The notes under the pieces were generated by a model that worked only from the letters and a program-made list of their open reading frames with translations, was not told the origin of the DNA and made no database searches. The translations under genes and the position numbers were made by a program. This document shows, piece by piece, positions 15,346 to 34,007 of a stretch of 64,000 nucleotides of DNA; position 1 is the first letter of the stretch, and every line of letters starts with the position of its first letter. Source of the DNA: an uncultured Acidobacteriota bacterium (GTDB taxonomy: Bacteria; Acidobacteriota; Thermoanaerobaculia; Gp7-AA8); assembly GCA_963822445.1 (NCBI GenBank), contig CAWGHO010000003.1:928001-992000 (forward strand). The letters run 5' to 3'.

Positions 15346-18300
15346 CTACTTAACCCCGTTTCTCAATTCGCTCACATGAGCGGCTTTCACCATGGTGGTG
15401 CCGGCGGTGAGAGCCGGATCGGTGAATGCGATCGCGGGCAACCCCAGTGCCGTGCGTGCGGCATTGAGGCTCGAGCGCAATTCGGTGATGTGCAGGGCCT
15501 TGAACGGCCCCCCGATCGTCACTGAGTCCGTGAACGTCTGCGCTGCCAACCCAGCCGCGGCGCGCATGGCGTTGACAGCGCCTCGCAGCTCATTGACGTG
15601 CACCGCTTTCATCCCCGTGCCCGGACCGAGAGGATCGTCGGTGAAGATGACGGTCGTGGCGAGATCGGGACTGCTCAGTTCCGGAAGCGGGGCCACGCTG
15701 ACGCGTACCCGATAGGTGTACGTCGTATACGGCACGAGACCCGTGTCGGTCGTGGAATTGCCGCCCACGGTCTTGACCAGGACCAGCGGTCCACCGTTCG
15801 AGCTGCGCAGGATGTCGTAGCCCGGTGCATTTGGAATCGCCGTCCACGTGAGCGCGACGCTCGAGGAAGTGGCCGCGGTGGCAATCAGATTCGTCGGCGT
15901 GAACAAGACGTTCGCCACGTCGGTCGCGCTGTTGTTCGAAGGCACGACGTCGCCGCCGCCGGATACGTTGGCGGTGTTGGTCAACGTCGCCGGCGCGTTC
16001 ACGCTGACGTTCACGTTGAGGATGATCACCGGGTAGGTCTGATTGACGGCGAGACTGTCGGTGCGTGAGCACGTCACCGCCGCGAGATCGCAATTCCAGC
16101 CCGAGCCGGTCAATGCGATAGGCGTAATGCCGGTCGGCACGGCATCCGTCACCGTGACAGTTCCGCTCGACGGCGCGGCGCCACTGTTGCCGACATTGAT
16201 GTAGTACGTCGCTCCCTGCTGGCCGCGCGCCAATGGTCCAAGACGCGTTTTGGTAATGGTCAGATCGGCGCCCTGCACGATGGTCGTCGGATCGCTCGCG
16301 CTGTTGTTGCTGGTGACCGCGTCCGCGCCACCGGAGACAGTGGCGGTGTTCGTAACGCTTGCCGGGGCGGTCTCCGAGACCGTCACGAAGAGACTGATGT
16401 CGGGATAACTTCCTGACCCGAGCGTATCGCTGCGCGTGCAGGTGAGAGTGGCCAGCGTGCATGACCATCCGGAGCCGCTCATCGCCGTCGCGGTCAGTCC
16501 GGCAGGCAGAACATCGGTGACCGTCACCTGTCCGAGTGTGCCGCCCGCGGCGATGTTCGCGACGTTCAACGTGTACTTCGCGTTCGTCTGGCCACGCTTG
16601 AAGTTTCCGGCATGGCTCTTGGCGATGGTGAGATCGGGACAGCCGCCGCTCATCACGATGAGCTTGTCATTGTGCGCGGTCGTCACGGCCAGGTCGGGTC
16701 TCCCGTCCGCATTGAAATCTCCGATGACCAGGGCCGTCAGTCCATTGCCGACGGAATAGCTCATCTCCGGCTGGAACGTTCCGTCGCCATTACCGAGCAG
16801 GATCACGACTCTGTTCGAGCTTCCGTTCACGATGACCAGGTCGGCTTTGCCATCGCCGTTGAGATCCTCGACGGTCGCGGAGAACGAGCCGTAACTGACC
16901 TGGAAGATCACGGGTGCCTGGAACGTCCCGTTTCCATTGCCGAGCGAGACGAAAGCAGTCCCCGAGTAGTAGCTGCCCGCGACGAGATCGACGTTGCCAT
17001 CCCGATTGAAGTCGCCGGCGCTGACCCAGTAGGTCGAGTTGCCCGACGCATATTGGACGGCACTCTGGAAGGTACCGTTGCCGTTGCCGAGGAGTACCCA
17101 GAGGCCGCCGTACTCGCTCGACACGACCAGGTCCAGTCTGCCGTTGCCGTCGAAGTCGGCGACTGTCAGTGATTGAGGATACTGGCCGGCCGGGTATTCA
17201 GCCGCTGTCTGAAGCGTTCCGTTCCCATTTCCGAGAAGAATGTGAACCACACCTTGATAGGCCCCCTCGGTCGCAGCGACGTCCAGATCCCCGTCGCCAT
17301 CGAAATCTCCGAGTGCGACCGAATTGACGTAGTCACTGACCGGATACTGGACGCGCGCTGCAAACGTGCCGTTTCCGTTGCCCAGCAGCACTGAGACGCT
17401 GCCGCTGTATTGATTCAGGATGACCAAGTCGGAGATGCCGTCGTTAGTGAGGTCTCCCGTGGCCACCGCGATCGGAGCGTCGCCGACCGCGTATTTGCTT
17501 GCTGTCGCGAACGTACCATCTCCGTTCCCGAGGTAGATCGAGACGTTGTCGGCGTAGTAGTTGGCCACGACGAGATCGGCGTACGCGTCGCCGTTGAAAT
17601 TCCCCATGGCCAGGTCCTGGGGATTGTCGCCGGTGTCGTATTGCACGCTGATGCCGAAGCTCCCGCAGTTCTGGCTGTTCCAGATTACTGTCAGATCGGA
17701 TGCCGTGTTGTTCGTGGCGACGCCATCCCCGCCTCCTGTGACCGCAGCGACGTTCGTTACCGAGGTCGGAGCGTTGGCGGCGACGTTGACGGTGAGCGTG
17801 ATCGCCGGGTAAGCGGTATTGGCCGCGAGCGCGTCGCTGCGGGTGCATGTCAAATTGCCGAGGGTGCAGTTCCATCCCGTGCCGGCGATTGCGGTCGCCG
17901 TGAGGCCAGCAGGCAAGGTGTCGACGACGGTGACGAGACCCGCCGTTGCCAGACCGCCCGCGTTCCTGACGAGCAGTTTGTAAGTCCTGCCGGTGTCTCC
18001 CTGAGCGAAATTGCCGGAGTGGGTCGCCGTAATGGTGAGGTCCGTAACCGGCTCGACCGTCGTTTGATCGCTGGCGGTGTTGTTCAGTGCATCGAGCTCT
18101 CCGCCGCCGGCCACGGTGGCTGTATTGGTCACGCTGGCCGGGGCGCTGCTCGCTACCTTTACCGTCAGCGTGATCGCGGGATAACTCGCGCCGGGCGCGA
18201 GACTGTCGGTGCGCGTGCACAGAAGCGTCGCCGCACTGCACGACCATCCCGTGCCGCTCAACGCTGTTGCGGTCAGTCCGGCCGGGAGGGTGTCCTTCAC

Positions 18301-21300
18301 GCTGACCACGCCCTCGGTCGGCGCACCGCCGCTGTTGGTCGCGGTGATCGTGTACGTTCTGGCCGCATCACCCTGCACGAAGTTGCCGGTGTGAGTCTTG
18401 GTCACGGTCATGTCCGACAGAGGACAGGTGTTGAGCAATATCGAGACGCTGGCTGCAGTGCTGTTGGCAATGGCCAGATCGGGCTTGCCGTCGCGATTGA
18501 AGTGAGCCGCGACGAGCGCCGCCGGGCCGTTCCCTGCGCTCGAATGCACAGCGGACTCGAACACGCCCGTGCCCGTGTTGAAAAGAACGGAGACATTGTT
18601 CGAACCGTTGTTCGTCACGGCGAGATCGAGGCTGCCGTCAGCATCGACATCGCTGGCGACGAGCATCGACGGAGCCGTTCCGACCGCGTAATTCAACGCC
18701 GCCTGGAAGGTGCCGTTGGCGTTTCCGCGAAGAACGGAGACGTCGTTCGATCCGCCGTTGGAAACGGCCAGATCGAGCTTGCCGTCGCGATTGAAGTCGC
18801 CGGCGGCGATCGATGATGGACTCGTGCCCGCGGCAGTGATCGTCGCGGTCTGGAACGTGCCGTTTCCATTGCCCAGGAGAATCGAGACGTTGTTTGACCC
18901 AGTGTTGGCGGCAGCGATGTCGGCGCGGCCGTCGCGATTGAGGTCGGCGGTCGCCACGGCAGAGGGATTCGTTCCCACGGCGTAATTCACTGCCGCCTGG
19001 AAGGTGCCGTTGCCATTGCCTAGGAGAACGGAGACATTGTTCGATCCGCCGTTCGCCACGACGAGGTCGAGCCTGCCGTCGCCGTTGACGTCGCCCGCCG
19101 CCACGGAGCGGGGATTGGTGCCCGCGCCGTAGTTCGCGGCGGTCTGGAAGCTGCCGTCGCCGTTTCCGATGAGGATCGAGACGTTGCCCGAGCCGTTGTT
19201 CGCGACTGCGAGATCGACTGTGCCATCGCCGTTGAAATCGCCGGCGATCAGGGCGTCGGGGTCGTCGCCGGCGGCGTAATTGCCACCCGCGGTGAACGTG
19301 CCGTCGCCGTTCCCGAGCTTGACGGAAACGTCGTTCGCACTCTTGTCGGCGATGGCGAGGTCGATCCTGCCGTCGCCATTGAAATCGGCGGCGGCAAGAG
19401 CGTCGGGAGTGGTGCCGGCGGCGTAATCGACCGCGGCAGCCCAGGTACCGCAGTTCAACGCGCAGACGCTCGAATTGAACAATACGGAGACGTTGGCGGA
19501 GGTCGGATTTGCGACGGCGATGTCCGCTTTTCCGTCGCGATTCAGGTCGGCGATGATCGCCTGATTCGGATTGGTGCCGGCGACATATTGAGTCGCGGCC
19601 GCAAAGGTTCCGTTTGTATTTCCGCGAAGCAGCGAGACAGGTCCGCTACTGCTGGCAGTCACGAGGTCGAGCTTGCCGTCGCCATCGATATCCCCGGCCG
19701 AGACGGAATACGGCCCGGTGCCGGTCGCGTAATTGACAGCCGCGTCGAAGGTGCCATCGCCGTTTCCGGTCAGGACGCCGATGTTGTTCGAGGTGTAATT
19801 CGAAACGGCCAGATCGAGCGCACCGTCGGCATTGAAGTCACCGATGGCGACGGAGGAAGGCGCGCCGCCGACGGTCAGGTCCACGGCCGCGCCGAATGTA
19901 CCGTCGCCATTGCCGGGGAGAATCGACACCTTGCCGGCGTTGTAATTCGCGACGGCGAGATCGTTCCGGCCGTCTGAATCGAAATCTCCGATCGCCACCC
20001 AGAACGGGCCGGAGCCGGTGCCGTAATTGACCGCCGACTGGAACGTGCCGTCGCCTGCGCCTTTGAGGATCGAGACGTTGCTCGAGCCATTGTTCGCGAC
20101 GGCGAGATCGATCTTTCCATCGCCGTCGAAATCGCCCGCGGCAACTGAAAACGGACTGACGCCGGCTGAGTAATGGACCGCGGACTGGAAGGCGCCGTCG
20201 CCGGTGCCGAGGAGGATCGAGACGTCGTTCGAGCCGGAGTTCGCGACGGCGATGTCGGTCTTGCCGTCGCCGTTGAAATCGCTCGTGGTCACGGCGATGG
20301 GAGCGGTGCCGACTTCGTGATAGACCGCCGAGAGGAACGAAGTGCCGTTTCCGCGGAGCGTCGCAACGGTTTTGCCGGTGACGTTGGCGACTGCGAGATC
20401 GACGATGCCGTCGCGGTTGAAATCACCCGCGGCCAGAGCGGCGGCGCCGGCGGCCGAATAGTCGATCCGCGCATTGAAAGAGGGACAGCCAACGACGGGA
20501 GCGGTAGTGACGACACTCACGTTGGCGACGGTCGCGTGTGCGATGCCGTCGGCGATTCCCGAAATGACGAGCGGATAGTTTCCCGTCGGCGAGGAGGCGC
20601 CGATGTTGAGGGTCAGCGTCGAGGTGGTGGTGGCCGACGAGGGACTGAAGGAGCTCGACGATCCGCTGGGCAGACCGCTGACGGAAAGCGCGACCGAGCC
20701 GGTGAATCCGGCCGATGGCGTGATCGTGATCGTGTAGGTCGTCGAATTGCCGCGGACCACCGTTCGCGTCGACGGGCTCGTGGTGATCGAGAAATCGGGG
20801 CCGAGAGGAGCGCCGATCGCTTTCGCCGCATTGAGGCGGCCCCCGGTGATGGTCTTGCCTGAGAGGCTGGAAAGCGGATCGGTGTTGTCGAGGATCTCGC
20901 TCTTCACCTCGGCCGTCGTCAACGCGGGCGTGCTTGCCAGGATCAACGCGGCGACGCCAGCCACGTGCGGCGCGGCCATGGAGGTGCCGCTGAGATATCC
21001 GTACGACGCGCCGGGGAAGGTGGAGTAGACGTCGACACCCGGCGCGCCGAGGTGCACGGTGGTCGGGCCGTAGCTCGAGAAATACGCGATGCCGTCGGTG
21101 TTGGTCGTCGCCGCGACCGAGATCATGTTGGGGGTGGCGTAATTCGCCGGGTACTTGGGATAGAAGTCGTTGTTGCTCGAGTCGTTGCCGGCTGAAGCGA
21201 CGAACAGGATGTCGTGCTCGTTCGCTTTGTTGATCGCGTCGAGCAGCGATTTGGAAAAGTAGCCGCCGCCCCAGCTGTTCGACAGCACGCGCACGTTCAC

Positions 21301-22104
21301 GCCGTCGATCTTTGCCTGGACCGCGAAGTCGATCGCGGCGATGGCGTTCGCGGTCGTGCCGTAACCGTCCGCGTCCAGGAACTTGAGTCCCATGATCGAC
21401 GTCGTCCAGTTCACGCCGGCGACTCCGAGGGAGTTGTTGCCTACTCCGCCGATCGTTCCCGAGACGTGCGTGCCGTGGTAGTGATTGTCGTGCGGATCAC
21501 AGGTCTTGGTGATGGCGTTGAACCCGTGCGTGCCGGCGGCGCAGGTGACGTTTCCTTTGCCGCCGGGGTTGTTCCAGATGTTCGCGGCGAGGTCGGGATG
21601 GTTGTAGTCGACGCCGGTGTCGACGACGCCGACGACGATCGATGCGGATCCCGTGGTCACGTTCCACGCTGCCTCGGCATTGATGTGGGAGCCCGGAAAT
21701 CCGGGCGAGCCGCCGATCGATTGCCCGGTGTTCTTCAGGCCCCAGAGCAGGCCGAACGAGGTGTCGTTCGGCGTCGCCACGAGACGGAGGACGTAGTTCG
21801 GCTCGACGTATTCGATGTTGGGGTTCTTTTCGAGGGCCGCTGCAAGGGCTTCGACGTTCTTCGAGCGCGAACGGAAGCGCATGACCGTTCCCGACGCGAA
21901 ACTCGCAACCCGTTCCGACTCCTCGGCGTCGGCGATCTGCTCGAGGTTCGCCAGCGCGGCCTGCGAGGCCCCCTTCCTGATCTTGATCAGGACCTCGCGG
22001 GGAACCGATCCTCCGGTGGGCTTGATCGCCGGCGCGGCGTTGGCGGAAATCGCGAAGACGAGAATGAGGAGCGAGCGGACGAGTACACGGAGCGTCGTGT
22101 GCAT
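15346..22104 (-). CDS. Secreted S8 subtilase with three FG-GAP repeat clusters, DUF11-like Ig domains, an Fn3 domain and a C-terminal triple repeat
   Basis: Catalytic triad VVDTG / HGTHVSG / GTSMAAP; many GDFNGDG..DLAV repeats; signal peptide. Confidence 0.93.
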   Translation of the reverse strand: MHTTLRVLVRSLLILVFAISANAAPAIKPTGGSVPREVLIKIRKGASQAALANLEQIADAEESERVASFASGTVMRFRSRSKNVEALAAALEKNPNIEYVEPNYVLRLVATPNDTSFGLLWGLKNTGQSIGGSPGFPGSHINAEAAWNVTTGSASIVVGVVDTGVDYNHPDLAANIWNNPGGKGNVTCAAGTHGFNAITKTCDPHDNHYHGTHVSGTIGGVGNNSLGVAGVNWTTSIMGLKFLDADGYGTTANAIAAIDFAVQAKIDGVNVRVLSNSWGGGYFSKSLLDAINKANEHDILFVASAGNDSSNNDFYPKYPANYATPNMISVAATTNTDGIAYFSSYGPTTVHLGAPGVDVYSTFPGASYGYLSGTSMAAPHVAGVAALILASTPALTTAEVKSEILDNTDPLSSLSGKTITGGRLNAAKAIGAPLGPDFSITTSPSTRTVVRGNSTTYTITITPSAGFTGSVALSVSGLPSGSSSSFSPSSATTTSTLTLNIGASSPTGNYPLVISGIADGIAHATVANVSVVTTAPVVGCPSFNARIDYSAAGAAALAAGDFNRDGIVDLAVANVTGKTVATLRGNGTSFLSAVYHEVGTAPIAVTTSDFNGDGKTDIAVANSGSNDVSILLGTGDGAFQSAVHYSAGVSPFSVAAGDFDGDGKIDLAVANNGSSNVSILKGAGDGTFQSAVNYGTGSGPFWVAIGDFDSDGRNDLAVANYNAGKVSILPGNGDGTFGAAVDLTVGGAPSSVAIGDFNADGALDLAVSNYTSNNIGVLTGNGDGTFDAAVNYATGTGPYSVSAGDIDGDGKLDLVTASSSGPVSLLRGNTNGTFAAATQYVAGTNPNQAIIADLNRDGKADIAVANPTSANVSVLFNSSVCALNCGTWAAAVDYAAGTTPDALAAADFNGDGRIDLAIADKSANDVSVKLGNGDGTFTAGGNYAAGDDPDALIAGDFNGDGTVDLAVANNGSGNVSILIGNGDGSFQTAANYGAGTNPRSVAAGDVNGDGRLDLVVANGGSNNVSVLLGNGNGTFQAAVNYAVGTNPSAVATADLNRDGRADIAAANTGSNNVSILLGNGNGTFQTATITAAGTSPSSIAAGDFNRDGKLDLAVSNGGSNDVSVLRGNANGTFQAALNYAVGTAPSMLVASDVDADGSLDLAVTNNGSNNVSVLFNTGTGVFESAVHSSAGNGPAALVAAHFNRDGKPDLAIANSTAASVSILLNTCPLSDMTVTKTHTGNFVQGDAARTYTITATNSGGAPTEGVVSVKDTLPAGLTATALSGTGWSCSAATLLCTRTDSLAPGASYPAITLTVKVASSAPASVTNTATVAGGGELDALNNTASDQTTVEPVTDLTITATHSGNFAQGDTGRTYKLLVRNAGGLATAGLVTVVDTLPAGLTATAIAGTGWNCTLGNLTCTRSDALAANTAYPAITLTVNVAANAPTSVTNVAAVTGGGDGVATNNTASDLTVIWNSQNCGSFGISVQYDTGDNPQDLAMGNFNGDAYADLVVANYYADNVSIYLGNGDGTFATASKYAVGDAPIAVATGDLTNDGISDLVILNQYSGSVSVLLGNGNGTFAARVQYPVSDYVNSVALGDFDGDGDLDVAATEGAYQGVVHILLGNGNGTLQTAAEYPAGQYPQSLTVADFDGNGRLDLVVSSEYGGLWVLLGNGNGTFQSAVQYASGNSTYWVSAGDFNRDGNVDLVAGSYYSGTAFVSLGNGNGTFQAPVIFQVSYGSFSATVEDLNGDGKADLVIVNGSSNRVVILLGNGDGTFQPEMSYSVGNGLTALVIGDFNADGRPDLAVTTAHNDKLIVMSGGCPDLTIAKSHAGNFKRGQTNAKYTLNVANIAAGGTLGQVTVTDVLPAGLTATAMSGSGWSCTLATLTCTRSDTLGSGSYPDISLFVTVSETAPASVTNTATVSGGADAVTSNNSASDPTTIVQGADLTITKTRLGPLARGQQGATYYINVGNSGAAPSSGTVTVTDAVPTGITPIALTGSGWNCDLAAVTCSRTDSLAVNQTYPVIILNVNVSVNAPATLTNTANVSGGGDVVPSNNSATDVANVLFTPTNLIATAATSSSVALTWTAIPNAPGYDILRSSNGGPLVLVKTVGGNSTTDTGLVPYTTYTYRVRVSVAPLPELSSPDLATTVIFTDDPLGPGTGMKAVHVNELRGAVNAMRAAAGLAAQTFTDSVTIGGPFKALHITELRSSLNAARTALGLPAIAFTDPALTAGTTMVKAAHVSELRNGVK

Positions 22105-22279
22105 GGATTCGGAACCCTGGGCATTCGCGAGCTGACAGGCGGGCGGGATCAGCCGGAAATCGGCCGTTCGAGCGTCGTCACGTTTGCCCGGTTTGCGAGT
22201 TATTTTGGACCGCGAGCACTATACGGAAGGACGGCCGGTCGTTCAACGCAATAATTGCTGGCGCTCGGGAGGGAAGGGG

Positions 22280-22355
<76 letters not shown>

Positions 22356-22445
22356 GGCAGAAGCGGCGCGGAAGATACCACAGCCGTTTTCGGTGGCAAG
22401 CCTCGACGTAAACGCATGAGCCCGTGAATCATTCCGTTTCGCCCG

Positions 22446-22473
22446 TTGACATGGCCCGGATCCCGCGTACACT
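22446..22473 (+). promoter_or_regulatory. sigma70-type promoter upstream of the riboswitch
   Basis: TTGACA-N16-TACACT. Confidence 0.7.
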
Positions 22474-22498
22474 CCTCCAGCCGCCATTTGGGTGGCGG

Positions 22499-22638
22499 CC
22501 TTGCCGCCTAATCCTCGGCGCCGAGGAACGGGGGAACCAATTAGCGACGGCTTGCCACCGTCCGGGGTGAATCCAGCCAGAAGCTGGTAGGGCTTCCAGC
22601 CCGAATCCGACAGCTAACCTCGTAGGCAGCCGGAAGGC
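22499..22638 (+). ncRNA. Cyclic di-AMP (ydaO/yuaA-type) riboswitch aptamer
   Basis: Conserved blocks in the correct order: AATCC…AGGAACGGGGGAACC…GGGGTGAATC…GTAGGG…CCCGAATCCGACAGCTAACCTCGTAGGC. Confidence 0.9.
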
Positions 22639-22647
22639 TCGGCCAAG

Positions 22648-22683
22648 CAAACGCCGCGAAGAAATTCGCGGCGTTTGTCATTT
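22648..22683 (+). terminator. Probable riboswitch expression-platform terminator
   Basis: CAAACGCCGCGAA-GAAA-TTCGCGGCGTTTG stem with a U-rich 3' side (TTTGTCATTT). Confidence 0.65.
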
Positions 22684-22872
22684 GCGCGAACATTTGCGCG
22701 AAAAATCCATCCCGATGGATCCCCCGCAACGGCGTCTTGAACGATCCACCTTTTTCGGAATTGACTCCGCCCGCCGCAAACGATAGAAGCAGCAGGTAGT
22801 TGACGGTTTCCGGCATCGGCGGCTGGAAACCTGCACAACCACGGCGTTCTGAAACCTTTGAAAGGAGCCGAT

Positions 22873-25871
22873 ATGAAACGGTGCCCTCCCCTTTGGTATC
22901 GCGCGGCATGGGCCGCGATGCTCGTATCACTGCTGGCGTTCGGTGCATACGGGCAAGGTGCGCAGTCCGGCAATATTTTCGGCACGGTAGCGGGCAGTGA
23001 CGGAGGCGCCCTCCCGGGCGTGACCGTAGTCCTGACAGGCGGCGGTGCTCCACAGACCACCGTCACCGACGCTCAGGGACGTTTCCGCTTCATCAACCTG
23101 TCTCCCGACACGTACTCGCTGCGAGCCGAGCTTGCCGGCTACGGCACCGCGGAACGGTCGGGCGTCACGGTGAACATCGGACGCAACGCCGAAGTCTCGA
23201 TGACGCTGAATCCCTCCGTCTCGCAGACCATCACGGTCACCGCCGAGACCCCGCTGCTCGACGAGCGGCGCACCGGCACGGGCACGACGATCACCGAGAT
23301 CGAGCTCGAAGAAGATCCCGACCGCGCGTGACCCCTGGGCGATCCTGCAGCAGACCCCGGGCGTGCTCAGCGACCGCATCAACGTCGGCGGCAACGAGAG
23401 CGGCCAGCAGTCGACCTTCGTTTCCAGGGCATCACACCAGCGACGAGGCGACGTACGGCGGTGGACGGCGTGGTGATCACCGACATGGCGGCCACCGGCT
23501 CCTCGCCGGCCTACTACGACTTCGACTCGTTCGAAGAGATGCAGGTCACGACCGGCGGCACCGACACCGCGCGTGCAGACCCCGGCGCGCACGATCAACA
23601 TGGTGACCAAGCGCGGCACCAACGAGTGGCGCGGCTCGGGCCGTTACTTCATGACCCCCGGCGACTATCAGGCCGAGGCCTCCGTTCCGGCCGAGGCGTT
23701 CTATCTCCAGCGCACGCAACGAGATCGAAGACATCACCGAATGGGGCGCGGAGATCGGCGGCCCGATCATCCGCGATCGTCTCTGGTTGTGGGGCGCCTA
23801 CGCCGACCAGCAGATCGACCTGTTCACCGCGCAGCCGATCAACACGACGGTTCGCTACTCCGACAAGACCACGCTCGAGACCTTGAACGCGAAGGTCAAC
23901 GCCCAGGTCTTCAGCAACAACAGCTTCACCGGCTTCTACACGGACAACCAGAAGATCAAGATCGGCCGGAACATCGGTCCGCTCCGTCCGCCCGAGACGA
24001 CCTGGAACCAGGGGGCGTTCGGCCCGCGTGGAACGTTCAAGCTCGAAGACACGCACATCTTCTCGTCGAGCTTCTACCTGACCGGCATGTACTCGAAGGT
24101 CAACGGCGGGTTCTATCTCGCCGCGCAGAGCGGTGAGAACTGCACGTCCATCGATTGCATCCGCTCGGTGCCGAAGGCGATCGTTCGCGACGTCACCGGC
24201 GGTGACCACCATCTCGAATACCGCAACACCTACTTCTCGCCGTTCGGCGAGCGTCCGCAGGAGCAGACCCGCCTCGACGGTTCGGCGTTCTTCTCCACCG
24301 GCGCGCTGAACCACGAGCTGAAGTTCGGTTTCGGCTATCGCACGGCCGGCACGCACAGCGTCTCCATCTGGCCGCAGGGGCAGTACATCCTCGACCTCGA
24401 CGGCGCGGGTTTCGGCCTGACCTACTTCCAGTCGTCCGACTTCGTGAACTACGAGTACGACTACAACGACATCTACGTCGGCGACACCATGCTGTGGGGC
24501 AATCTGACCCTGCAGGCTGGTCTCCGTTTCGACCGCCAGAAAGCCTCAGCCGGGGATCAGATCGGTCCCGAGAATCCGATCGTTCCTGAATTTCTGCCCG
24601 CGCTGTCGATCAGTGGAAGTGAGATCGACACGATGGAATGGGAGAGCATCTCGCCACGAATAGGCCTGACCTACGCGCTGGGGCAGGACAAACGAGCACT
24701 GGTACGAGCTTCATACAATCGATTCGTCGGTCAATTAGGGTCGAACACATCAGGCTACGCCGGCGTCATACCGGTCTCGTACAGATACATATCCTTCCTG
24801 ACCTTCGATGAAAATCTGAACGATCTCATCGAGGAAGGGGAGGTTCTGTACAACTACGGGCCGTACGGTTGGCTGGGACTCGATCCCGACAATCCGAGCT
24901 CGGTCATCCCCACCACCCGGGTGGATCCCGACATCGAAGCGCCAACGACCGACGAGTACATCCTCGGCTTCGAGTACGAGATGTTCCGGGACTTCGTCGT
25001 CGCGGTGAACTACACCCACCGCGACATCGATCAGTTCGTAGGAACACGATTCGAGAAAAACCGCGGCATGGGGGACTACATAACCGCAGCCGACTATCAG
25101 CTGCGGGTCAACGGCGATACCGGGCAACCGTTCCCCGCTACGAGACCGGGCGGCGTGACCGAGGTAGGCAACTACTCGGTACCGGTCTATGAGTTGAAGC
25201 CCGGCATCTCACCGAACTTTTCAGTTCTGACGAACCTGCCCGGTTATTCGCAGACGTATGACGGCATCGAGCTGTCTCTCGTCAAGCGGATGAACAACCG
25301 CTGGATGTTCCGCGGCAACTTCTCGTTCAACGACTGGACCCAGGACGTCGATCCGCAGTACTACGATCCGACGCCGGTTCGCGTCGGCTCGGGCTGCTCG
25401 AACTGCGACGGCGCCGACGTCGTCGAGCAGTCGACCGGCTCTGGCAACAAGGGCAGCGTCTGGATCGATGCCGACTGGGCCTTCAATATTGCCGGCGTCT
25501 ACCAGATCCCGGTCATCGAGACGAACTTCGGCGTGAACTTCACCACCCGCCAGGGTTATCCGATCCTCTACGTCCACAACGCGGACGTGACCCAGGCCGG
25601 TGCGGACACGAAGAACGTCCTCGTCGAAGAAGTCGGTGCGAGCCGCCTCGACAATCCGTACTCGCTCGACCTTCGCCTGTCGAAAGACTTCCGCTTCCGC
25701 GGGGTGGGGCTGGAAGTGGCCGTCGATGCCTTCAACATCACCAACGAGCGCACCGTCCTGCAGCGCAACTCCAGTCTGACGTCGTTCGACGCGGCCGTTG
25801 CGTCGCGCAACCGCATCACCGAGCTGCAGAGTCCCCGCGTTCTCCGGTTCGGTGCCCGCTTCTCGTTCTAA
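22873..25871 (+). CDS. TonB-dependent receptor (Oar-like, carboxypeptidase-regulatory-like N-domain), broken by several frameshifts at about 23310-23720
   Basis: AAGGAG RBS and signal peptide; plug motifs PTARDPW..LQQTPGV, DGVVITD and INMVTKRG lie in shifting frames; the barrel ends in PRVLRFGARFSF. Confidence 0.88.
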
Positions 25872-25899
25872 GCCCCTTGGATCACAATGGTTCCACCAG

Positions 25900-25935
25900 C
25901 CCGCCGGGAATTCTCCCGGCGGGTTTTTTTCTTTT
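25900..25935 (+). terminator. Intrinsic terminator
   Basis: CCCGCCGGGA-ATTC-TCCCGGCGGG followed by T7. Confidence 0.9.
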
Positions 25936-25971
25936 CCGTGCGCCGTCACCAACAACCCGGAGGTCCTGACT

Positions 25972-26946
25972 TTGATCCGATCAGCACGTTTCTTTGCGGT
26001 GAGTCTCGCTCTGTGCGCCGCCCTCGGCGCGTCCGCACAGGCATGGAAGGGCGTGGCCCGGATTCAGGGCGTCGTCGTCGATGCCCAGGGCAAGGCCATC
26101 AAGGGCGCGAAGGTTCACCTGAAGTCGGTGCGGATGGATGGCGCCGGCCCCAAGCCGATCGTCACCGACGACCGTGGCAAATGGGCCGCCCTCGGGCTGG
26201 CCAGCGGCAAGTGGAACGTCGACGTTGAGGCCGAGGGCTTCCTCCCGCGCGCGACGAGCGTGGAGCTCAGTGAGCTCACGCGCATCCCGCCGATGAAGAT
26301 CGAGCTCGAGGCCGCGCCGCCTCCCGCTCCGAAGGAAGAGCCGGCCGCGGTGGAAAGCATTCAGGTTGGTGGCGTCGAAGTCACTCCCGAGATCGCGCAG
26401 GCCCTCGAAGCGGCGAACGGCTTCATGAAAGAACAGAAGTGGAAGGAAGCGGCCGCCGAATACGAAAAGGCGGTGGCCGTTCTTTCCACGAACATGTCTC
26501 TCAAGTTCGCGCTGTCCCGCGCGTACTACGGCGCGGGGGAGATCGACAAAGCGATCAACCAGCTGCAGGCGGTTTACGCGGCGGACAGCGGCAACATGAC
26601 CGCGGCTACGCTGCTCACGGACATGCTCCTCGAGAAGGGGCGCATCGACGAGGCCAAGAAGATTCTCGCCGCGCTGCCGCCGGGCGCGCTCTCTGATCCC
26701 AACACGATCATCAACCTCGGCATCCGCTTCATGAATCAGAACAAGGGCGAAGAGGCCCTGAAGTACTTCAATGACGCCGTCGGCGTCGCGCCGGATCTCG
26801 CGGCCGCTTATTACTACCGCGCCGTTGCCTCGCTGTCGCTCAAGAAAATGGCGGACGCGAAGAAGGACCTGAACAAGGTTATCGAGATGGCGCCGGATTC
26901 ACCCGAGGCCAAAGACGCGAAGGAACTGCTCGCTCAGATGAAATGA
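25972..26946 (+). CDS. Secreted protein with a carboxypeptidase-regulatory-like domain and TPRs
   Basis: GGAGG RBS with TTG start, signal peptide, IQGVVVDAQG..IKGAKV, C-terminal TPR helices. Confidence 0.85.
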   Translation: MIRSARFFAVSLALCAALGASAQAWKGVARIQGVVVDAQGKAIKGAKVHLKSVRMDGAGPKPIVTDDRGKWAALGLASGKWNVDVEAEGFLPRATSVELSELTRIPPMKIELEAAPPPAPKEEPAAVESIQVGGVEVTPEIAQALEAANGFMKEQKWKEAAAEYEKAVAVLSTNMSLKFALSRAYYGAGEIDKAINQLQAVYAADSGNMTAATLLTDMLLEKGRIDEAKKILAALPPGALSDPNTIINLGIRFMNQNKGEEALKYFNDAVGVAPDLAAAYYYRAVASLSLKKMADAKKDLNKVIEMAPDSPEAKDAKELLAQMK

Positions 26947-29105
26947 TGGGTTCCCCGGCGAGATCGGTCGCGCTGATCGTCCTCGGCCTCGCGCTGGCCG
27001 CCTGCCGCGGCGACGACAAATTGCCGCCGCCCGCGGCCGGCACGCCGGTCTTCATCATCTCCATCGATACGCTGCGGTCGGATCACCTTCCGGCCTACGG
27101 ATACAAAGGCGTCGAAACGCCGCGGATCGATGCTTTTCGCGACGACGCCGTGCTCTACGAGCGGGCCTACTCGCACACGCCGCTGACCCTGCCTTCGCAT
27201 GCGTCGATCCTCACCGGCGCTCTTCCGGCGGATCACGGGATCCGCGACAACACCGGCTACCGTCTCGGCGCGAAAGTCCGCACCGCCGGCGAGATTCTCG
27301 GTGAGCGGGGATACGCGACCGGGGCCGTGGTTTCGTCGTTCGTGCTGCGCCGGCAGACCGGAATCGATCGCGGCTTTCAATTCTTCGATGACGAGGTCGC
27401 GCCGCTCAATCCGCAGAACCGCCAGATCGGTGCGATTCAGCGCGACGGCGCCGAAACGGTGCAGGTGGCGACGTCGTGGATCGAGAAGCAGACCAGGCCG
27501 GTCTTCTTTCTCCTCCATCTGTACGAGCCGCACATGCCGTACACGCCGCCGGAGCCGTATCGCAGCCGCTACGCGAATCACTACGACGGCGAGATCGCCC
27601 GCGCGGACGAGATCGTCGGGACGTTTCTCGATGCGCTCAAAAGCCGCGGTCTTTACGATCGTTCGCTGATCATCCTGCTCTCCGACCACGGCGAAGGACT
27701 CAACGACCACGGCGAGGTGGAGCACGGCACGTTTCTTTATCGCGAGGCCATCCAGGTTCCGCTGCTGGTGAAGTTCCCCGACTCGAAATTCAGCGGGACG
27801 TCGGTTGCCGCGCCGGTGCAGCTCATCGACGTCGTTCCCACCATCCTCGATCGCGCCGGCATACCGTCCACGGGCACGCCTGCCGGGCGCTCGCTGGCGA
27901 GCTTCCTGGTCGAGAAGAAACCGGAATGGCGCAAGGTCTACAGCGAAAGCTATTACCCGCGCTTCCACTTCGGCTGGGCCGATCAGCATTCCCTGATCGA
28001 CGGGCGCCATCACTACATTCACTCGACGAAATCCGAACTGTTCGACCTGGAGAAAGACCCTGCCGAGAAGGCGAACGTGCTGGAAGCGGATCGACGCACG
28101 TTCTTCGCGATGAAGTCCGCCATCGAGCCGCTGGTGAAGGAGGCGTCGGCGCCGGCGCCGGTTGGTTCCGAGGAAGCGGCGAAGCTGGCGGCTCTGGGCT
28201 ATCTCGGATCGACAGTGCAAACCAAGCCCGGTGAAACGCTGCCGGATCCGAAGGACAACATCCATCTCGCGACGAGCTCCAACGAGGCCTTCGCGAAATA
28301 TCACCAGCGCCAGTACGCCGAAGCTCTGGTCGTGATCGAGCGGCTGCTCGCGGAGAACCCGCGCATCCTCGATCTGTGGGACCTCAAATCGAAGACCCTC
28401 GCGCGCATGGGGCGTCTCGAGGAAGCGGTCACGGCGGCGAAAGAAGGATTGCGGCTCTCGCCGAACGCGACGCACCTGGCCATCGACGTCGCCACGCTGC
28501 AGATCGATCTCGCCAATTACGACGACGCTGAAAAGCACGCTGAGCTCGCGCTGGCGACTGACCCGGCCCAGGCCCACGACCTGATCGCGAGAGTCTGGAT
28601 CGCCCGAAAAAATACGGATCGCGCGGAAGCGGAAGCGAAGAAAGCGATGAGTGCGAGCGACCGCGTCGCGCCGCTGATCACCATGGCCCTCGTGCGGCGC
28701 GAGCAGGGGCAGCATGAGGAAGCGCTGAAGCTTCTCGAGCAGGCCGTCGAGAAAAAACAGAAGCGGGAAGAGATCGCCTCGCTGTACTTCCTGCGCGGGG
28801 ACATGCGCGCGCGTCTGGGACGTGCCGAGGAGGCGGAGCGGGATTTCCGGCGTGAGATCGAGCTCTTCCCGGAAAGTCCGCAGGCCTACCGCAATCTCGC
28901 GCTGCTGCTCGTCGCGGACGGACGGATCGAGGAAGCGACGGCGCTGATTCGCAAGCTCATTGCCGAGGCGCCTTTTCCTGGTTCGTACCACACCGTTTGT
29001 CAGATTCTCGACACGGTCGGCGATCAACGCGGCGTGCGCTATTGGGCGCGGCGCGGGCTGGCTCAGTTCCCTGAAGACAGGACGTTGCGGCGGCTGGCGT
29101 CATGA
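26943..29105 (+). CDS. Sulfatase-like (alkaline phosphatase superfamily) lipoprotein with TPRs
   Basis: Lipobox LAAC, ISIDTLRSD, PLTLPSH, YEPH, SDHGE and a TPR tail. Confidence 0.88.
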   Translation: MMGSPARSVALIVLGLALAACRGDDKLPPPAAGTPVFIISIDTLRSDHLPAYGYKGVETPRIDAFRDDAVLYERAYSHTPLTLPSHASILTGALPADHGIRDNTGYRLGAKVRTAGEILGERGYATGAVVSSFVLRRQTGIDRGFQFFDDEVAPLNPQNRQIGAIQRDGAETVQVATSWIEKQTRPVFFLLHLYEPHMPYTPPEPYRSRYANHYDGEIARADEIVGTFLDALKSRGLYDRSLIILLSDHGEGLNDHGEVEHGTFLYREAIQVPLLVKFPDSKFSGTSVAAPVQLIDVVPTILDRAGIPSTGTPAGRSLASFLVEKKPEWRKVYSESYYPRFHFGWADQHSLIDGRHHYIHSTKSELFDLEKDPAEKANVLEADRRTFFAMKSAIEPLVKEASAPAPVGSEEAAKLAALGYLGSTVQTKPGETLPDPKDNIHLATSSNEAFAKYHQRQYAEALVVIERLLAENPRILDLWDLKSKTLARMGRLEEAVTAAKEGLRLSPNATHLAIDVATLQIDLANYDDAEKHAELALATDPAQAHDLIARVWIARKNTDRAEAEAKKAMSASDRVAPLITMALVRREQGQHEEALKLLEQAVEKKQKREEIASLYFLRGDMRARLGRAEEAERDFRREIELFPESPQAYRNLALLLVADGRIEEATALIRKLIAEAPFPGSYHTVCQILDTVGDQRGVRYWARRGLAQFPEDRTLRRLAS

Positions 29106-31180
29106 AAAAGCGCGCGGTCATCGCCGTTGCGCTCATCGTCGTCGCCGTGGCGGCGTTCTTCGTGCTGCGGCGTGGCGCCGTCGGTGTCGCGGCACTCGGC
29201 TCGAAACAGCCGGACATCATTCTGGTCACGATCGACACCCTCCGCGCCGACGGCATCAGCTTCACCGGCAGCAAGCGGGTGAGCACGCCCTTTCTCGACG
29301 AGCTGGCGCGCGGCGGCGTGTACTACCGCAACGCCCACGCGCATAACGTGGTCACGCTGCCGTCGCACTCGAACATCCTCACCGGCCTCCTGCCGTATCA
29401 GCACGGCGTGCGCGAAAACGCCGGTTTCGTGCTCGACCCGAAGCACAAGACCGTGGCGGCGCTGCTCAAGGAGAAGGGATACGCGACCGGGGCATTCGTC
29501 GCCGCGTTTCCGCTCGACGCTCGTTTCGGTTTAGGCGCCGGCTTCGACGTTTACGACGACGAGTATCCCGAGGCGACGAAGCCGACGGCGTTCGTCGTGC
29601 CGGAGCGCGGCGCATCGGAAGTCTTCGCCGCCGCGCAGCAATGGTTCGACTCGGTCACCGACCGCGGCCGCTTCCTGTGGGTGCACGTGTACGAGCCGCA
29701 CGCGCCGTACAACCCGCCCTCGCCGTATCGGGAGAAGTACAAAGACAATCCTTACTACGGCGAGATCGCCGCGCTCGACGAAGTCCTCGGCGGTTTCCTT
29801 CGCCCGATCCTCGAAAAGAATCCGAACACGCTGCTCATCGTCACCGCCGATCACGGCGAGGGGATGAGCGAGCATGGCGAGATCACCCACGGCGTCTTCG
29901 CCTACGAGGAGACGCTGCACGTTCCGCTGATCGTTCACGAGAAGGGCCGCGTCGCGCCGCGGGTCGAGCAGAGCTATGTCCGGCACGTCGACATCGTCCC
30001 GACGATCCTCGAGCGCGCCGGACTCGAAAAGCCGAAGGAGCTCCTGGGCGAGTCATTGCTGCGGATCGAAAAGGAGCGCGACACCTACTTCGAAGCGCTC
30101 ACCGCGAACATCAACCTCGGCTGGGCGCCGCTCATCGGCATGATTCACGGCGGCCACAAGTACATCGAGCTTCCACTCCCCGAGCTCTACGACCTCGGCG
30201 CCGATCCGCGGGAGAAGAAGAACATCCTCACCGACAACCGGCGGATGACCACGCGCATCCGCTCGATGCTGGCCAGTGCCGCGCCTGCGGCGGGCCCGAT
30301 CGAGCGCAATCTCTCGCCGGAAGAAGCGCGCAAGCTGCTCAGTCTCGGATACCTGGCCGGCACCGCCGCGGCCAAAAAGGAGTACACCGAGCGCGACGAT
30401 CCGAAGAACGTCGTCCATCTCTACACGATCATGATGGATGCGATCGCGAAGTATCAGCAGGGCGACCTCGAGGAGTCGATGCGCATCGCCCGGACGGTGA
30501 TCGCCGAGCGCGCGGAGATGGCCATGGCCCGCGACTTCCTCGCCTTCGTCCTGCAGGAGAGCGAAAAAGGGGCGGAAGCGGAAGGCGTCATCCGCGAGGC
30601 GATGGCCGCGGGCACCGCGACCGACGCCATGCGCAAGCGCCTCGGCCTGCTGCTCAGCGAAAGCGGTCGCCCCGAAGAGGCGGTGAAGGTTCTCGCGGAG
30701 TTCTCCGGGTCGCGCGACCCCGATCTGCTCAATGCCTACGGAATCGCGCTCGCGGACATGGGCCGCTTTCCCGCGGCCATCCAGCAGTTCGAGAGCGCCT
30801 TGCGGATCGATCGGACGAACGCGACGGCCTATCAGAACCTCGGCGTGGTCGCCTTGCGCGTGAACGATCTCGCCCGGGCCGAGCAGTATCTCGGCCGCGC
30901 CCTTCAGCTCAATGCGCAGATGCCGCTGGCCCTGAACTCGATGGGGGTGGTCTACGCCCGCCGCAATGATTTGCCGCGCGCGCTGGAGTCCTGGAAGCGG
31001 GCTGTGGCGGTCGATCCGAAGCAATATGACGCTTTGTTCAACATTGGGCTCGTCGCCGGCAACGCGGGCCGGTACGATGAGTCCCGCCAAGCCTTAGAAC
31101 AGTTCGTAAAAACCGCGCCGAAAGAGCGGTACGCGCAGGACATCGCCCGCGCGCGTTCCGCGCTCCAGGCGTTGCCTTGA
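29102..31180 (+). CDS. Sulfatase-like membrane-anchored protein with TPRs
   Basis: N-terminal TM, VTIDTLRAD, VVTLPSH, YEPH, ADHGE and a TPR tail. Confidence 0.88.
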   Translation: MKKRAVIAVALIVVAVAAFFVLRRGAVGVAALGSKQPDIILVTIDTLRADGISFTGSKRVSTPFLDELARGGVYYRNAHAHNVVTLPSHSNILTGLLPYQHGVRENAGFVLDPKHKTVAALLKEKGYATGAFVAAFPLDARFGLGAGFDVYDDEYPEATKPTAFVVPERGASEVFAAAQQWFDSVTDRGRFLWVHVYEPHAPYNPPSPYREKYKDNPYYGEIAALDEVLGGFLRPILEKNPNTLLIVTADHGEGMSEHGEITHGVFAYEETLHVPLIVHEKGRVAPRVEQSYVRHVDIVPTILERAGLEKPKELLGESLLRIEKERDTYFEALTANINLGWAPLIGMIHGGHKYIELPLPELYDLGADPREKKNILTDNRRMTTRIRSMLASAAPAAGPIERNLSPEEARKLLSLGYLAGTAAAKKEYTERDDPKNVVHLYTIMMDAIAKYQQGDLEESMRIARTVIAERAEMAMARDFLAFVLQESEKGAEAEGVIREAMAAGTATDAMRKRLGLLLSESGRPEEAVKVLAEFSGSRDPDLLNAYGIALADMGRFPAAIQQFESALRIDRTNATAYQNLGVVALRVNDLARAEQYLGRALQLNAQMPLALNSMGVVYARRNDLPRALESWKRAVAVDPKQYDALFNIGLVAGNAGRYDESRQALEQFVKTAPKERYAQDIARARSALQALP

Positions 31181-31200
31181 CGGATCCCAAGGAGAACCCG

Positions 31201-33285
31201 ATGAACACGAGACGCATGCTGAGCATCCTGTTGACCATCGCCGTGGCCGCGCCCGTTCTCGCGCAGCGTGTCGGCGAGGCCGTGCAGGTCACCGTCGTCG
31301 AAGTCCCGGTCACGGTCGCCGACCGCGAAGGGAAGTCGGTCGCCGGTCTCACCGCGGAGAACTTCGAGCTGTATGACGAAGGGAAGCGCGTGCCGATCGA
31401 GTACTTCGACGTTCTCGATCTCTCCTCAACGTCGACGGTCAACGTGGACGTGCCCGCCGAAGCACTTCCTCCCGCCGCGACGCGTCACTTCCTGCTGATG
31501 TTCGACATCGCCAACTCATCGCCGGGCACGATCGGCCGCGCGCGCGAGGCCGCACGCACATTCGTCACGAGGGATCTCGGCCCGCGCGATCTCGCCGCGG
31601 TGGCCACGTTCACAGTCGAAGCGGGCGCGCGGATGGTCACCAACTTCACGAGGGACCGGCGCCTGCTGACGAGTGCGATCGAGACGCTCGGCCATCCGAA
31701 GTTCTTCAAGGTCGCCGATCCGCTGATGATCTCCGCCAACACCAGCGGCGGCGGGTCGGACGGCGGCCCGGGCGCGGGCATCGATGCCGACGCGATCTTC
31801 GCCGAGCTCACCCAGGACCAGCAGCGGCTCGCGAAATCGGCACATGACAACGAAATGCGCAATCGCCTGCGCATCCAGTTCTCGAACATGGGCAAGGTCG
31901 CGCGCGCGCTCGATCGCCTGCGCGGCCAGAAGCAGATCGTGCTGTTGTCGGAAGGCTTCGATTCGCGTCTCGTTCAGGGACGCGAGGTTCTCGGAGCAGA
32001 GGCCACGAAGGAAGCGGACACGATCATGGCCGGCGAAGTGTGGAAGGTCGACAGCGAGCAGCGCTTCGGCAGCTCTTCCTCCACGAACGACGTCATGGAC
32101 ATGGCCGAGCTCTTCCGCCGGTCGGACGTCGTGCTGCACGCGATCGACATCAAGGGACTCCGTGGAGCAGCAACAGACGCGAGCACGGCCAACGCCACGC
32201 AGGGCAAATCGGTCGAGTCGCTTCACATGATCACCCGGCCCACCGGCGGAACGGTCTTCAAGAACTCCAACGATCTCGGCGAGACGTTCCAGAAGATGTT
32301 GAAGCAGCAGGAGATCATTTATCTCATCGGCTTCCAGGCCCGCGGCACCGGCAAACCGGGCAAGTTTCATTCGCTGAAAGTGAAGGCGAACACCCCTCGC
32401 GGCACGCGCGTGGCCCATCGCGTCGGCTACTACGAGCAGAGCGAGCAGATGACGGATCTCGAGCGGAACCTCACCCTCGCCGAGATCCTGATGACCGACG
32501 CGCAGATCGAGGACGTCGTTCTCAATCTCGGCGCGACCACGCTGCCCGGGCCGGGAGGAAAGGCGCGGGTTCCGGTGGTGGTGGAGATCCCCGCGAGCGG
32601 ATTACTCCAGGAATTGAAGGGCTCGAAGGCGAGTGCGCAGTTGCTGCTTTACGCGTTCAATGAGCACGATCAGGTCGTGGACTTCCTGCAGGAGCGCATC
32701 GGCCTCGACCTCGACGTCGCCGGCGACGCCGTTCGCAAGGGCGGCGTCCGCTATTACGGAACGCTGCGGCTGCCTCCGGGCAAACACGCCCTGAAGGCGC
32801 TGGTGCGGGTGAACGAGACCGGTCGCATCGGCTACAAGCGCGAAGACGTGGACGTTCCGGCCTTCGACAAGGCCGCGATCATGCCGCCGGTGGTATTCGA
32901 GGATCCGGGTCAGTGGGCGATGCTGTTCGGGCCCGCGCGCGGCGACGACTACCCGTACCCGTTCGCCGTCGGCGACGCGAAGTACATCCCCAAGAGCGAG
33001 CCGGAAGTGAAGGCGGGCCAGGAGTACAAGATCGCGCTGTTCCTGAATCGCGTACCGCTCGAGAATCTTTCGGTCCTGCCGACGCTGATCACGAAGGGCG
33101 GAACGCCGCAGCCCGCGAACCTGAAGCTCCTCGGCCGCAGCAGCGCCGACGAGCGCGGCTCGGTGAAGCTGATCTTCAACTTCACGCCGCAGAACATCGC
33201 CGCGGGCAATCACCAGCTTCGCTTCGATGTGAAGACCAGCGACGGAACGGAGACGGCAGTGACCCTGCCGTTCATCGTCCGCTGA
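31201..33285 (+). CDS. Acidobacterial-type VWA-domain protein
   Basis: VEVPVTVADREG…GLTAENFEL, KQIVLLSEG, TGG and Y.IGF…GKFHSLKV pattern; signal peptide. Confidence 0.85.
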   Translation: MNTRRMLSILLTIAVAAPVLAQRVGEAVQVTVVEVPVTVADREGKSVAGLTAENFELYDEGKRVPIEYFDVLDLSSTSTVNVDVPAEALPPAATRHFLLMFDIANSSPGTIGRAREAARTFVTRDLGPRDLAAVATFTVEAGARMVTNFTRDRRLLTSAIETLGHPKFFKVADPLMISANTSGGGSDGGPGAGIDADAIFAELTQDQQRLAKSAHDNEMRNRLRIQFSNMGKVARALDRLRGQKQIVLLSEGFDSRLVQGREVLGAEATKEADTIMAGEVWKVDSEQRFGSSSSTNDVMDMAELFRRSDVVLHAIDIKGLRGAATDASTANATQGKSVESLHMITRPTGGTVFKNSNDLGETFQKMLKQQEIIYLIGFQARGTGKPGKFHSLKVKANTPRGTRVAHRVGYYEQSEQMTDLERNLTLAEILMTDAQIEDVVLNLGATTLPGPGGKARVPVVVEIPASGLLQELKGSKASAQLLLYAFNEHDQVVDFLQERIGLDLDVAGDAVRKGGVRYYGTLRLPPGKHALKALVRVNETGRIGYKREDVDVPAFDKAAIMPPVVFEDPGQWAMLFGPARGDDYPYPFAVGDAKYIPKSEPEVKAGQEYKIALFLNRVPLENLSVLPTLITKGGTPQPANLKLLGRSSADERGSVKLIFNFTPQNIAAGNHQLRFDVKTSDGTETAVTLPFIVR

Positions 33286-33308
33286 TCGAACCGTATACTT
33301 TGCCTCGC

Positions 33309-34007
33309 GTGGAAAACGGCGTTTCGGAGTTCGAGCAGCGCATCGGTTACACGTTCGTCCGCCGCGATCTCCTGCGGCGCGCGCTCACTCACAAGTCGTA
33401 CTCGCACGAGGCGAAGGACTTCGAGGTCCGCCACAACGAGACCTTCGAGTTTCTCGGCGACTCGGTCCTCGGCTTCGTCATCGGCGACCTGCTCTTCCAG
33501 CACTTTCCGGCAGCTCGATGAAGGCGCGCTTTCGAAGATGAAGGCGTACCTCGTCAGCGCCCCGAGCCTCGCGAAAAAAGCCGCGCGAGTACGGGATGGG
33601 CGACGTGATCCTCCTCGGCGTCGGCGAGGAGAAAACCGGCGGCCGGAAGAAGGACTCGCTGCTCGCGAACCTGTTCGAGGCGGTGATCGCCGCGATCTAC
33701 CTCGACGGCGGCATCGAGCCGGCGCGCAAGGTGATCGAGAGCACGTTCCGCGATGACATCCGCGCGATCGACGAGGAGGACCTTCTCTTTCACGACTACA
33801 AGACCGCGCTGCAGGAAGTCGCGCAGGCGAAGGGGCTTCCGTTGCCGGAGTACAACGTCGTGGCCGAGGTGGGGCCGGATCACGACAAGCGTTTCGTGGT
33901 CGAGGTGAAGCTCGGGCGGCCAGACGTCGCAGGGCGAAGGCTCATCGAAAAAGGAAGCGCAGCAGCAGGCGGCTCGTCATGCATTGCGCGAATTCGCTAA
34001 TCGGTGA
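33309..34007 (+). CDS. rnc: Ribonuclease III (apparent frameshifts at about 33510, 33585 and 33915)
   Basis: ALTHKS, NETFEFLGDS, LFEAVIAAIYLD, DYKTALQE, GPDHDK and GSSKKEAQQQAA spread over different frames. Confidence 0.9.

Follow-up and report, generated by a model that had tools for sequence, protein, structure and literature searches.

The DNA analysed here, called the window, is a stretch of 64,000 nucleotides from an uncultured Acidobacteriota bacterium (Thermoanaerobaculia, Gp7-AA8; assembly GCA_963822445.1, contig CAWGHO010000003.1, positions 928,001 to 992,000). Our subject is a riboswitch for cyclic di-AMP (c-di-AMP) that stands in it in front of the gene of an outer-membrane TonB-dependent receptor. 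Judged by its sequence, 22446–22684 is a complete c-di-AMP riboswitch leader at the head of a group of cell-envelope genes. A sigma-70-type promoter comes first, followed by a 5' hairpin, an aptamer of the canonical ydaO/kimA class and an intrinsic-terminator-like hairpin (T1). The sequence-only reading, made earlier without database searches, had placed a promoter, a ydaO/yuaA-type aptamer, a terminator-like hairpin and a receptor gene here. The promoter, aptamer and hairpin were all recovered; the receptor gene has its ribosome-binding site (RBS), start and stop where proposed, but it is not one open frame in the window, with four frame changes.

The promoter P1 (22446–22473, + strand) reads TTGACA-N16-TACACT and matches at 10 of 12 positions in the motif scan. 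It was the sole plus-strand site among three promoter-like sites in 22200–23200, where shuffles gave 0.1. No further plus-strand promoter-like site was found in this interval, including the spacer at 22685–22872, and none in 25800–36600. At the transcript start, placed from the −10 box, lies the 5' hairpin GCCGCC-loop-GGCGGC (22480–22499, +). The aptamer (22495–22641, +) was detected by the Rfam covariance model RF00379 with 75.9 bits (E = 7.9e-16), about twice the gathering score of 38, over model positions 1–134 of 134 and untruncated. The whole-genome covariance search returned the same score at the same coordinates, as the single match in the 6.0-Mb genome. The alignment displays the pseudoknot strands and conserved cores of the class (ACGGGGGAACC and CCCGAAUCCGACAGCUAACC). 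Within the aptamer an inserted 17-nt hairpin, GACGG-CUUGCCA-CCGUC (22547–22563, +), was invariant in all 32 leaders compared, loop included. A chance match was considered for the aptamer and is ruled out by its score and conservation. Other RNA families in 22350–23000 (E up to 1) gave only sub-threshold, chance-level matches.

T1 (22648–22684, +) begins 6 nt past the aptamer, after a linker, and is the presumed attenuator. It was recognised by eye and with RNAfold as a 13-bp hairpin with a U-rich tail: the 5' arm (22648–22660, CAAACGCCGCGAA) and the 3' arm (22665–22677, TTCGCGGCGTTTG) enclose a GAAA loop (22661–22664), and the tail TCATTTG ends at 22684. The hairpin is present in the minimum-energy fold of the window leader. 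A simple terminator scan called no T1 in the window because the U run is interrupted, and called the homologous hairpin of a relative (L040) with 15 pairs and the tail TCTTTCTG. The spacer (22685–22872, +) follows, in which an alignment of 17 receptor leaders shows a conserved hairpin, a CTGCACAA block and a nearly invariant RBS/start region (RBS AAGGAG, 22862–22867). Its folding equals that of shuffles (z 0.18). The receptor start codon lies 232 nt 3' of the aptamer on the same strand.

The receptor gene occupies 22873–25871 (+), from the ATG at 22873 to the stop at 25869–25871, and would encode a signal peptide, CarboxypepD_reg, Plug and a β-barrel. The N-terminal piece has a signal-peptide-like start and a CarboxypepD_reg match of 69.1 bits. 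Plug (PF07715) was scored on orthologues, with 28.6 and 29.4 bits (cut-off 23.9) and with 26.8 and 29.7 bits in further ones; the Plug region of the window is the frame-broken stretch, where no piece scored alone. The barrel family PF25183 gave 128 and 125 bits in orthologues and, in a six-frame genome search, 65.2 bits at 23856–25526, whereas hmmscan against Pfam (E up to 0.01) found no family in the 694-aa open reading frame (ORF) at 23787–25868. NCBIfam held no family for the receptor orthologues, and PDB sequence searches with one orthologue and with a profile matched only the N-terminal CarboxypepD_reg-like domain. An AlphaFold model was therefore read at the level of fold; it was built for the orthologue L048 from a 19-sequence alignment and is of moderate confidence, its mean predicted local distance difference test (pLDDT) score being 59.6, with 70–85 in the barrel and under 50 in the plug. 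In Foldseek against the PDB, all 50 of the best matches shown for this model were TonB-dependent transporters, led by FusA (4zgv, E 1e-20) and YddB (6ofr, 2.4e-20), with template modelling (TM) scores of 0.58–0.63 on the target. The motif ITVT before the plug (residues 119–122 of the first sequence) is invariant in the 19 orthologues, and the window reads SQTITVTAE there; it resembles the TonB boxes of FhuA and BtuB and may be such a box. As for a TonB partner, the genome gave 16 TonB_C (PF03544) matches above the cut-off. From sequence and model together, the receptor is predicted to be an outer-membrane protein of about 1000 residues with the TonB-dependent-transporter fold.

The machinery for the ligand is encoded in the same genome, in agreement with the cyclase that a c-di-AMP riboswitch would call for. 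One DAC domain was found (128.7 bits), in a protein of CdaA_N + DAC architecture, and the gene after it codes for a YbbR-domain (CdaR-like) protein.

Conservation was followed in 32 aligned leaders from 32 wider loci, for which the unpublished genomes G002 and G025 were left out. A TTGAC[AT]-N16/17-TA[CGA]ACT site stood at the equivalent position in 31 of them and T1 in all 32. Standard pairs were formed in 98.3% of the cells of the six named helices. The five helices within or before the aptamer were 98.8–100% paired, with three pairs changed on both sides in helix 4; the 5' hairpin (helix 1) was paired in 98.9% of cells and varied only from G-C to G-U. T1 was paired in 95.9% of cells with two pairs changed on both sides, so that the 5' hairpin, aptamer helices and T1 range over 95.9–100% with six such pairs. 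The leader sequences are very alike and covariation is accordingly sparse. Aptamers of the family (Thermoanaerobaculia, Acidobacteriota) were 81–99% identical to that of the window, the whole unit of promoter, aptamer and hairpin showed 89–99% identity across the family, and the adjoining proteins only 44–65%. In a tally of 60 relatives, which takes in G002 and G025, the riboswitch was present in 33: in 30 of 34 of the same genus, in both other sampled genera of the family, and in 1 of 24 outside the family. A sister genus (L034, G035:C129) has a second, diverged riboswitch copy (81% identity, 77.5 bits) with no P1-like promoter, with rnc upstream on the opposite strand and with no recognised gene after it.

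Gene order was scored in the 31 orientable loci of the 32 fetched. The receptor followed the aptamer directly in 18 of them, as the sequence-only reading would lead one to expect of orthologous receptors, and in one more it came at +8.2 kb after two VWA genes. A CarboxypepD_reg/TPR gene stood directly behind the aptamer in three loci and rnc in five; one locus had an inserted 3.9 kb and then rnc, one was the diverged second copy, and two contigs were too short to tell. In further genera of the family the receptor was next in 3 of 4, and the fourth contig ends. Among 78 receptor-family loci in public species genomes (Thermoanaerobaculia and Acidobacteriota metagenome-assembled genomes), the aptamer stood upstream of 36, each in a different genome, and shared the receptor strand in 35 of these. 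The other 42 include same-genome paralogues, and 10 of them have under 800 nt upstream and are not judgeable. Aptamer-linked and unlinked copies are interleaved in the receptor tree, which looks like repeated duplication of the receptor away from the riboswitch locus. When the leaders of aptamer-less paralogues were compared with the riboswitch-linked leader, only the RBS/start region aligned, which is uninformative on whether they have a promoter of their own.

Directly after the receptor stop lies a 12-bp GC-rich hairpin with a T run (T2, 25898–25935, +), and a T2-like hairpin with a T tail was seen at this place in 19 of 20 loci. The next gene (25972–26946, +) encodes a CarboxypepD_reg + TPR protein, and its RBS GGAGG (25959–25963) sits 23 nt past T2. 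Since this distance leaves no room for another canonical promoter, T2 must be leaky. Two genes for sulfatase-like (PF00884) + TPR proteins follow (26943–31180, +) with 4-nt start/stop overlaps at 26943 and 29102, and then the gene of an acidobacterial VWA-domain protein (TIGR03436; 31177–33285, +; 183 bits, cut-off 81), which overlaps its predecessor by 4 nt. By this arrangement the four genes after T2 are predicted to be translationally coupled, and the receptor and these accessory genes probably form one transcription unit with graded expression. The module ends constantly in rnc, an M23 (EnvC-like) peptidase gene and ctp for a PDZ protease (33309–36471, +), all frame-broken in the window. 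In each of the 22 loci long enough to include them, these three were collinear with the aptamer and on its strand.

Both 'sulfatase' proteins (26943–31180) carry T-L-P-S-H, seen by eye, at the position of the sulfatase motif, where type I sulfatases have C/S-x-P-x-R; they may instead be phospho-transferases or hydrolases of the alkaline-phosphatase superfamily. Paralogous receptor genes elsewhere likewise precede sulfatase-like genes. The GTG/TTG start codon of rnc lacks a Shine-Dalgarno sequence and has a conserved TATACT box 9–10 nt ahead of it, both in the window (33294–33311) and in about 20 loci, and this geometry suggests a leaderless rnc transcript.

On the other side of the leader, the divergent tRNA-Phe(GAA) gene (22283–22355, −; Rfam tRNA 73.3 bits, also found by ARAGORN) serves as a synteny anchor and is the only other gathering-level Rfam match in the 64 kb. 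In 23 of 32 loci ARAGORN reported a tRNA-Phe no more than 1.2 kb upstream of the aptamer; it lay on the aptamer strand in 6 and on the opposite strand in 17. Upstream of the tRNA, 15346–22104 (−) encodes a secreted-looking protein of 2252 aa with a subtilase domain, 17 FG-GAP-like repeats, DUF11 repeats and fn3.

In a sample of the phylum the riboswitch was also found in all four additional genera of the family and, outside the family, in 16 of 146 genomes. The loci outside the family had an AA_permease_2 (KimA-like) gene downstream in seven cases, K_trans (Kup) in two and FAD/NAD(P)-binding proteins in two. One locus each had a sulfate-type binding protein, a Porin_O_P porin heading an ABC importer operon, an M28 peptidase, a Band_7 protein and a molybdopterin oxidoreductase, and four had ORFs without a Pfam family. 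As it is found before K+ transporters and other genes outside the family, the riboswitch class is ordinary in Acidobacteriota, and what is new is its link to the receptor, which is specific to the family. In the porin locus (L105 of G142, 55–6500) an operon of Porin_O_P, SBP_bac_11, two permeases and an ABC ATPase-Usp fusion stands behind the riboswitch; it is a second case, in another family, of an outer-membrane channel gene behind a c-di-AMP riboswitch. In G108 (L085) a binding-protein gene lies directly behind it.

The arrangement is probably best explained by an OFF attenuator acting in cis, in which transcription would end at T1 while c-di-AMP is high and would run on into the receptor and accessory genes when it is low. 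In this model CdaA would make c-di-AMP, and at a high level the ligand would fold the aptamer and stop transcription at T1. When the level falls, which in the known response of the class accompanies K+ or osmotic stress, the polymerase would read on into the receptor gene and, through the leaky T2, would also reach the accessory genes. The OFF direction is borrowed from the riboswitch class, of which the known terminator-bearing members are OFF switches. Such OFF logic is described for the kimA leader of Bacillus subtilis in 10.1101/2023.07.05.547876, and the same source describes a TonB-dependent receptor of Caulobacter that is induced by K+ depletion, which we regard as a loose parallel. A search for sequencing runs that contain the sequence listed none from RNA. 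Among the relatives, the three species that lack the receptor and have the TPR gene first appear to offer the best indirect sign that T1 works as an attenuator and not as a full stop. There the next start codon lies 40–42 nt after T1, and read-through from P1 is apparently the only visible source of transcription. Because this gap leaves no room for a canonical promoter, T1 must be read through there at a useful rate.

Several observations weigh against the cis attenuator. No mutually exclusive antiterminator for T1 was found by RNAfold of the nascent leaders or by duplex searches with both T1 arms. One candidate, pairing 22545–22555 with 22647–22658, was dropped; just 3 of 32 nascent leaders had it in their minimum-energy fold, and in the window it gained 0.4 kcal/mol. 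Between T1 and the start codon the spacer is long and variable (177–563 nt across relatives). An extended −10-like TGCTAGAGT block occurs in it in 13 of the 17 aligned receptor leaders, with the window lacking it, and TTGGCA-18-GAAAAT was called promoter-like in the spacer of L040. In L038 (G018, about 3190–3500) a tandem array of an ~18-nt unit extends for ~300 nt between T1 and the conserved spacer blocks. A further objection comes from five species in which rnc stands directly after T1. Their promoter-aptamer-T1 unit is 95–97% identical and scores 75.2–75.8 bits, and the start signature of the receptor orthologue was found in none of the five genomes. On a DNA tree of rnc-M23-ctp (20 rows, loci with too little of the region left out), the rnc-direct state needs at least two changes, that is, at least two independent losses, and all states together need four. 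As the riboswitch is intact after these losses of the receptor, the unit would seem to be kept by selection for something besides it.

Also seen in the spacers was a block ACCTTTCCTTGACA...TGGTGCTAGAGT, present in 13 of the 17 receptor leaders (for example at 3235–3280 of L040) and absent from the window. Its CACC/GGTG ends covary in L057 (CATC/GATG), and candidate readings for it are an extended −10 promoter, a small hairpin and a protein-binding site. The five rnc-direct genomes were also searched for a receptor elsewhere. The best matches had 46–51% identity to L048 and were read as paralogues, because their N-termini differ and they lack both a CarboxypepD_reg/TPR neighbour and the leader blocks. 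In another genome (G012) an Arr-ms rifampin ADP-ribosyltransferase gene (168 bits; L022, 947–1360, −) lies directly after T1. It lies inside the 3.9-kb insert found there in place of the receptor module, behind an aptamer 99.3% identical to that of the window.

These objections are the substance of the main rival, which we consider rather unlikely. Here the unit would be an RNA gene of ~205 nt that stands by itself and is bounded by a terminator, or else a generic attenuator, and the receptor and later genes would be transcribed mainly from promoters downstream of T1. Sequence conservation is sharp and confined from the −35 box through the T1 tail, with flanks that barely align, and the GC-rich 13-bp T1 without a recognisable antiterminator fits such an RNA equally. 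The unit stays at full score after at least two losses of the whole module and at least two of the receptor alone. Grouping the four rnc-direct rows as one clade is rejected by the approximately unbiased (AU) test (p 3e-5); this group was named after the first tree had been seen. Most relatives have promoter-like blocks in the spacer, and rnc has its own conserved TATACT box. Against it stand the window, which has no promoter-like site between T1 and the receptor, and the TPR-first species, in which only read-through from P1 is visible. Of the receptor paralogues in a genome only one retains the aptamer, a pattern that favours a specific link. Trans-acting riboswitch RNAs (SreA, EutX/Rli55) are moreover rare, and we count this against it.

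A related possibility, which we hold to be doubtful and slightly less probable again, joins both functions in one element. The unit would be a self-contained c-di-AMP-sensing RNA gene, fixed beside tRNA-Phe across a whole family of Thermoanaerobaculia, the short form of which would act as a c-di-AMP buffer or as a trans RNA. The read-through form would gate whatever envelope genes recombination has placed behind it, be it the receptor module, the TPR/sulfatase-like operon or rnc-M23-ctp. Such a gene would explain how the unit survives repeated deletion of its targets.

The frame of the window receptor raises another objection to the cis attenuator, namely that the receptor is a true pseudogene here and that the riboswitch controls nothing functional at its first gene. 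The intact orthologue L048 (1015 aa) aligns over residues 1–1015 in three frames (frame 1 at 22873–23592, frame 2 at 23309–23746, frame 0 at 23718–25868), with four frame changes near 23310, 23440, 23575 and 23720, and the translated N-terminal frame ends after 152 residues. The window copy is thus not an intact TonB-dependent transporter gene, while all 19 extracted orthologues (988–1038 aa) are intact. Yet the whole orthologue is still encoded, and the 2.1 kb after the last change are free of defects. The damage is also not peculiar to the receptor: rnc, the M23 gene and ctp, 8–11 kb downstream, have at least three, at least three and one frame changes against orthologues that are intact in relatives (at least seven in 3.2 kb, 33282–36471), each gene lying in two or three frames. 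Short-read contigs from two runs, ~92% identical, show single-base indels against the window inside 23315–23717 (at 23315, 23425, 23436, 23441, 23461, 23566, 23580, 23592, 23629 and 23717), a zone that coincides with the frame changes and with the peak of cross-mapping depth. Other long genes near the receptor are intact in the window. Because of the broken rnc, M23 and ctp, the short-read indels, the intact orthologues and the intact neighbours, the broken frame is most likely an error of the assembly consensus rather than decay, and the assembly seems to carry patches of indel errors in its most conserved coding stretches. A true pseudogene is therefore improbable.

An ON switch, or action on translation or RNA stability instead of termination at T1, is very improbable: the missing antiterminator and GGCGGC at 22494–22499, which by eye can pair with GCCGCC at 22480–22485 or with GCCGCC in the P1 strand of the aptamer (22503–22508), would allow it, but T1 starts right behind the aptamer, the start codon ~190 nt further on is too distant for the aptamer to occlude the RBS directly, and the terminator-bearing kimA member is an OFF switch (10.1101/2023.07.05.547876).

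If the cis attenuator is true, the reach of c-di-AMP would extend to outer-membrane transport in a diderm soil lineage, where the riboswitch is fixed in front of one particular receptor in 35 or more species-level genomes. Signalling by this nucleotide is understood mainly in Gram-positives, where it governs K+/osmolyte uptake and cell-wall homeostasis at the inner membrane. The leader would also open to experiment the very large, uncharacterised family of CarboxypepD_reg-Plug-barrel receptors of Acidobacteriota, in which a known signal would single out one of several paralogues per genome. The natural deletion series, with the receptor present, the receptor lost or the whole module lost and the riboswitch always kept, is a ready comparison for the function of the leader.

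The sequence-only reading had supposed the pairing of a c-di-AMP riboswitch with a TonB-dependent receptor to be undescribed, and a full-text literature search, which stopped short of the gene-association tables of Nelson 2013 and Block 2010, gave no report of it. The nearest known systems each share a part of the arrangement. FusA and YddB, the best structural matches of the orthologue model, have the predicted fold of the receptor but only 12–13% sequence identity to it; the receptor here has an N-terminal CarboxypepD_reg domain, and its substrate is not inferable from them. Listeria SreA/SreB and Enterococcus/Listeria EutX/Rli55 are riboswitch-containing small RNAs. They resemble the present locus in that a promoter-aptamer-terminator unit can exist as a discrete short RNA, which fits its retention after loss of the downstream gene; for the unit here a trans target, a protein-binding site and a short transcript are hypothetical. 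The ydaO/kimA riboswitch of B. subtilis (kimA, ktr, kdp, kup) has the same RF00379 aptamer in a promoter-proximal leader, a terminator-like hairpin and a CdaA-type cyclase. Its targets are inner-membrane K+/osmolyte transporters or a cell-wall hydrolase, in contrast to the outer-membrane receptor here, and the leader described here has a long spacer, no recognisable antiterminator and the invariant 17-nt inserted hairpin. The cobalamin riboswitch upstream of btuB controls a TonB-dependent transporter, and its ligand is the transported substrate or product, which gives feedback. It shares with the present case the position of a riboswitch ahead of a gene for an outer-membrane TonB-dependent transporter. 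In the present case the ligand would be a second messenger that the cell itself produces, and the logic would be signal-gated uptake and not substrate feedback. Compared with these systems, the element in the window is a canonical riboswitch with a new target class.

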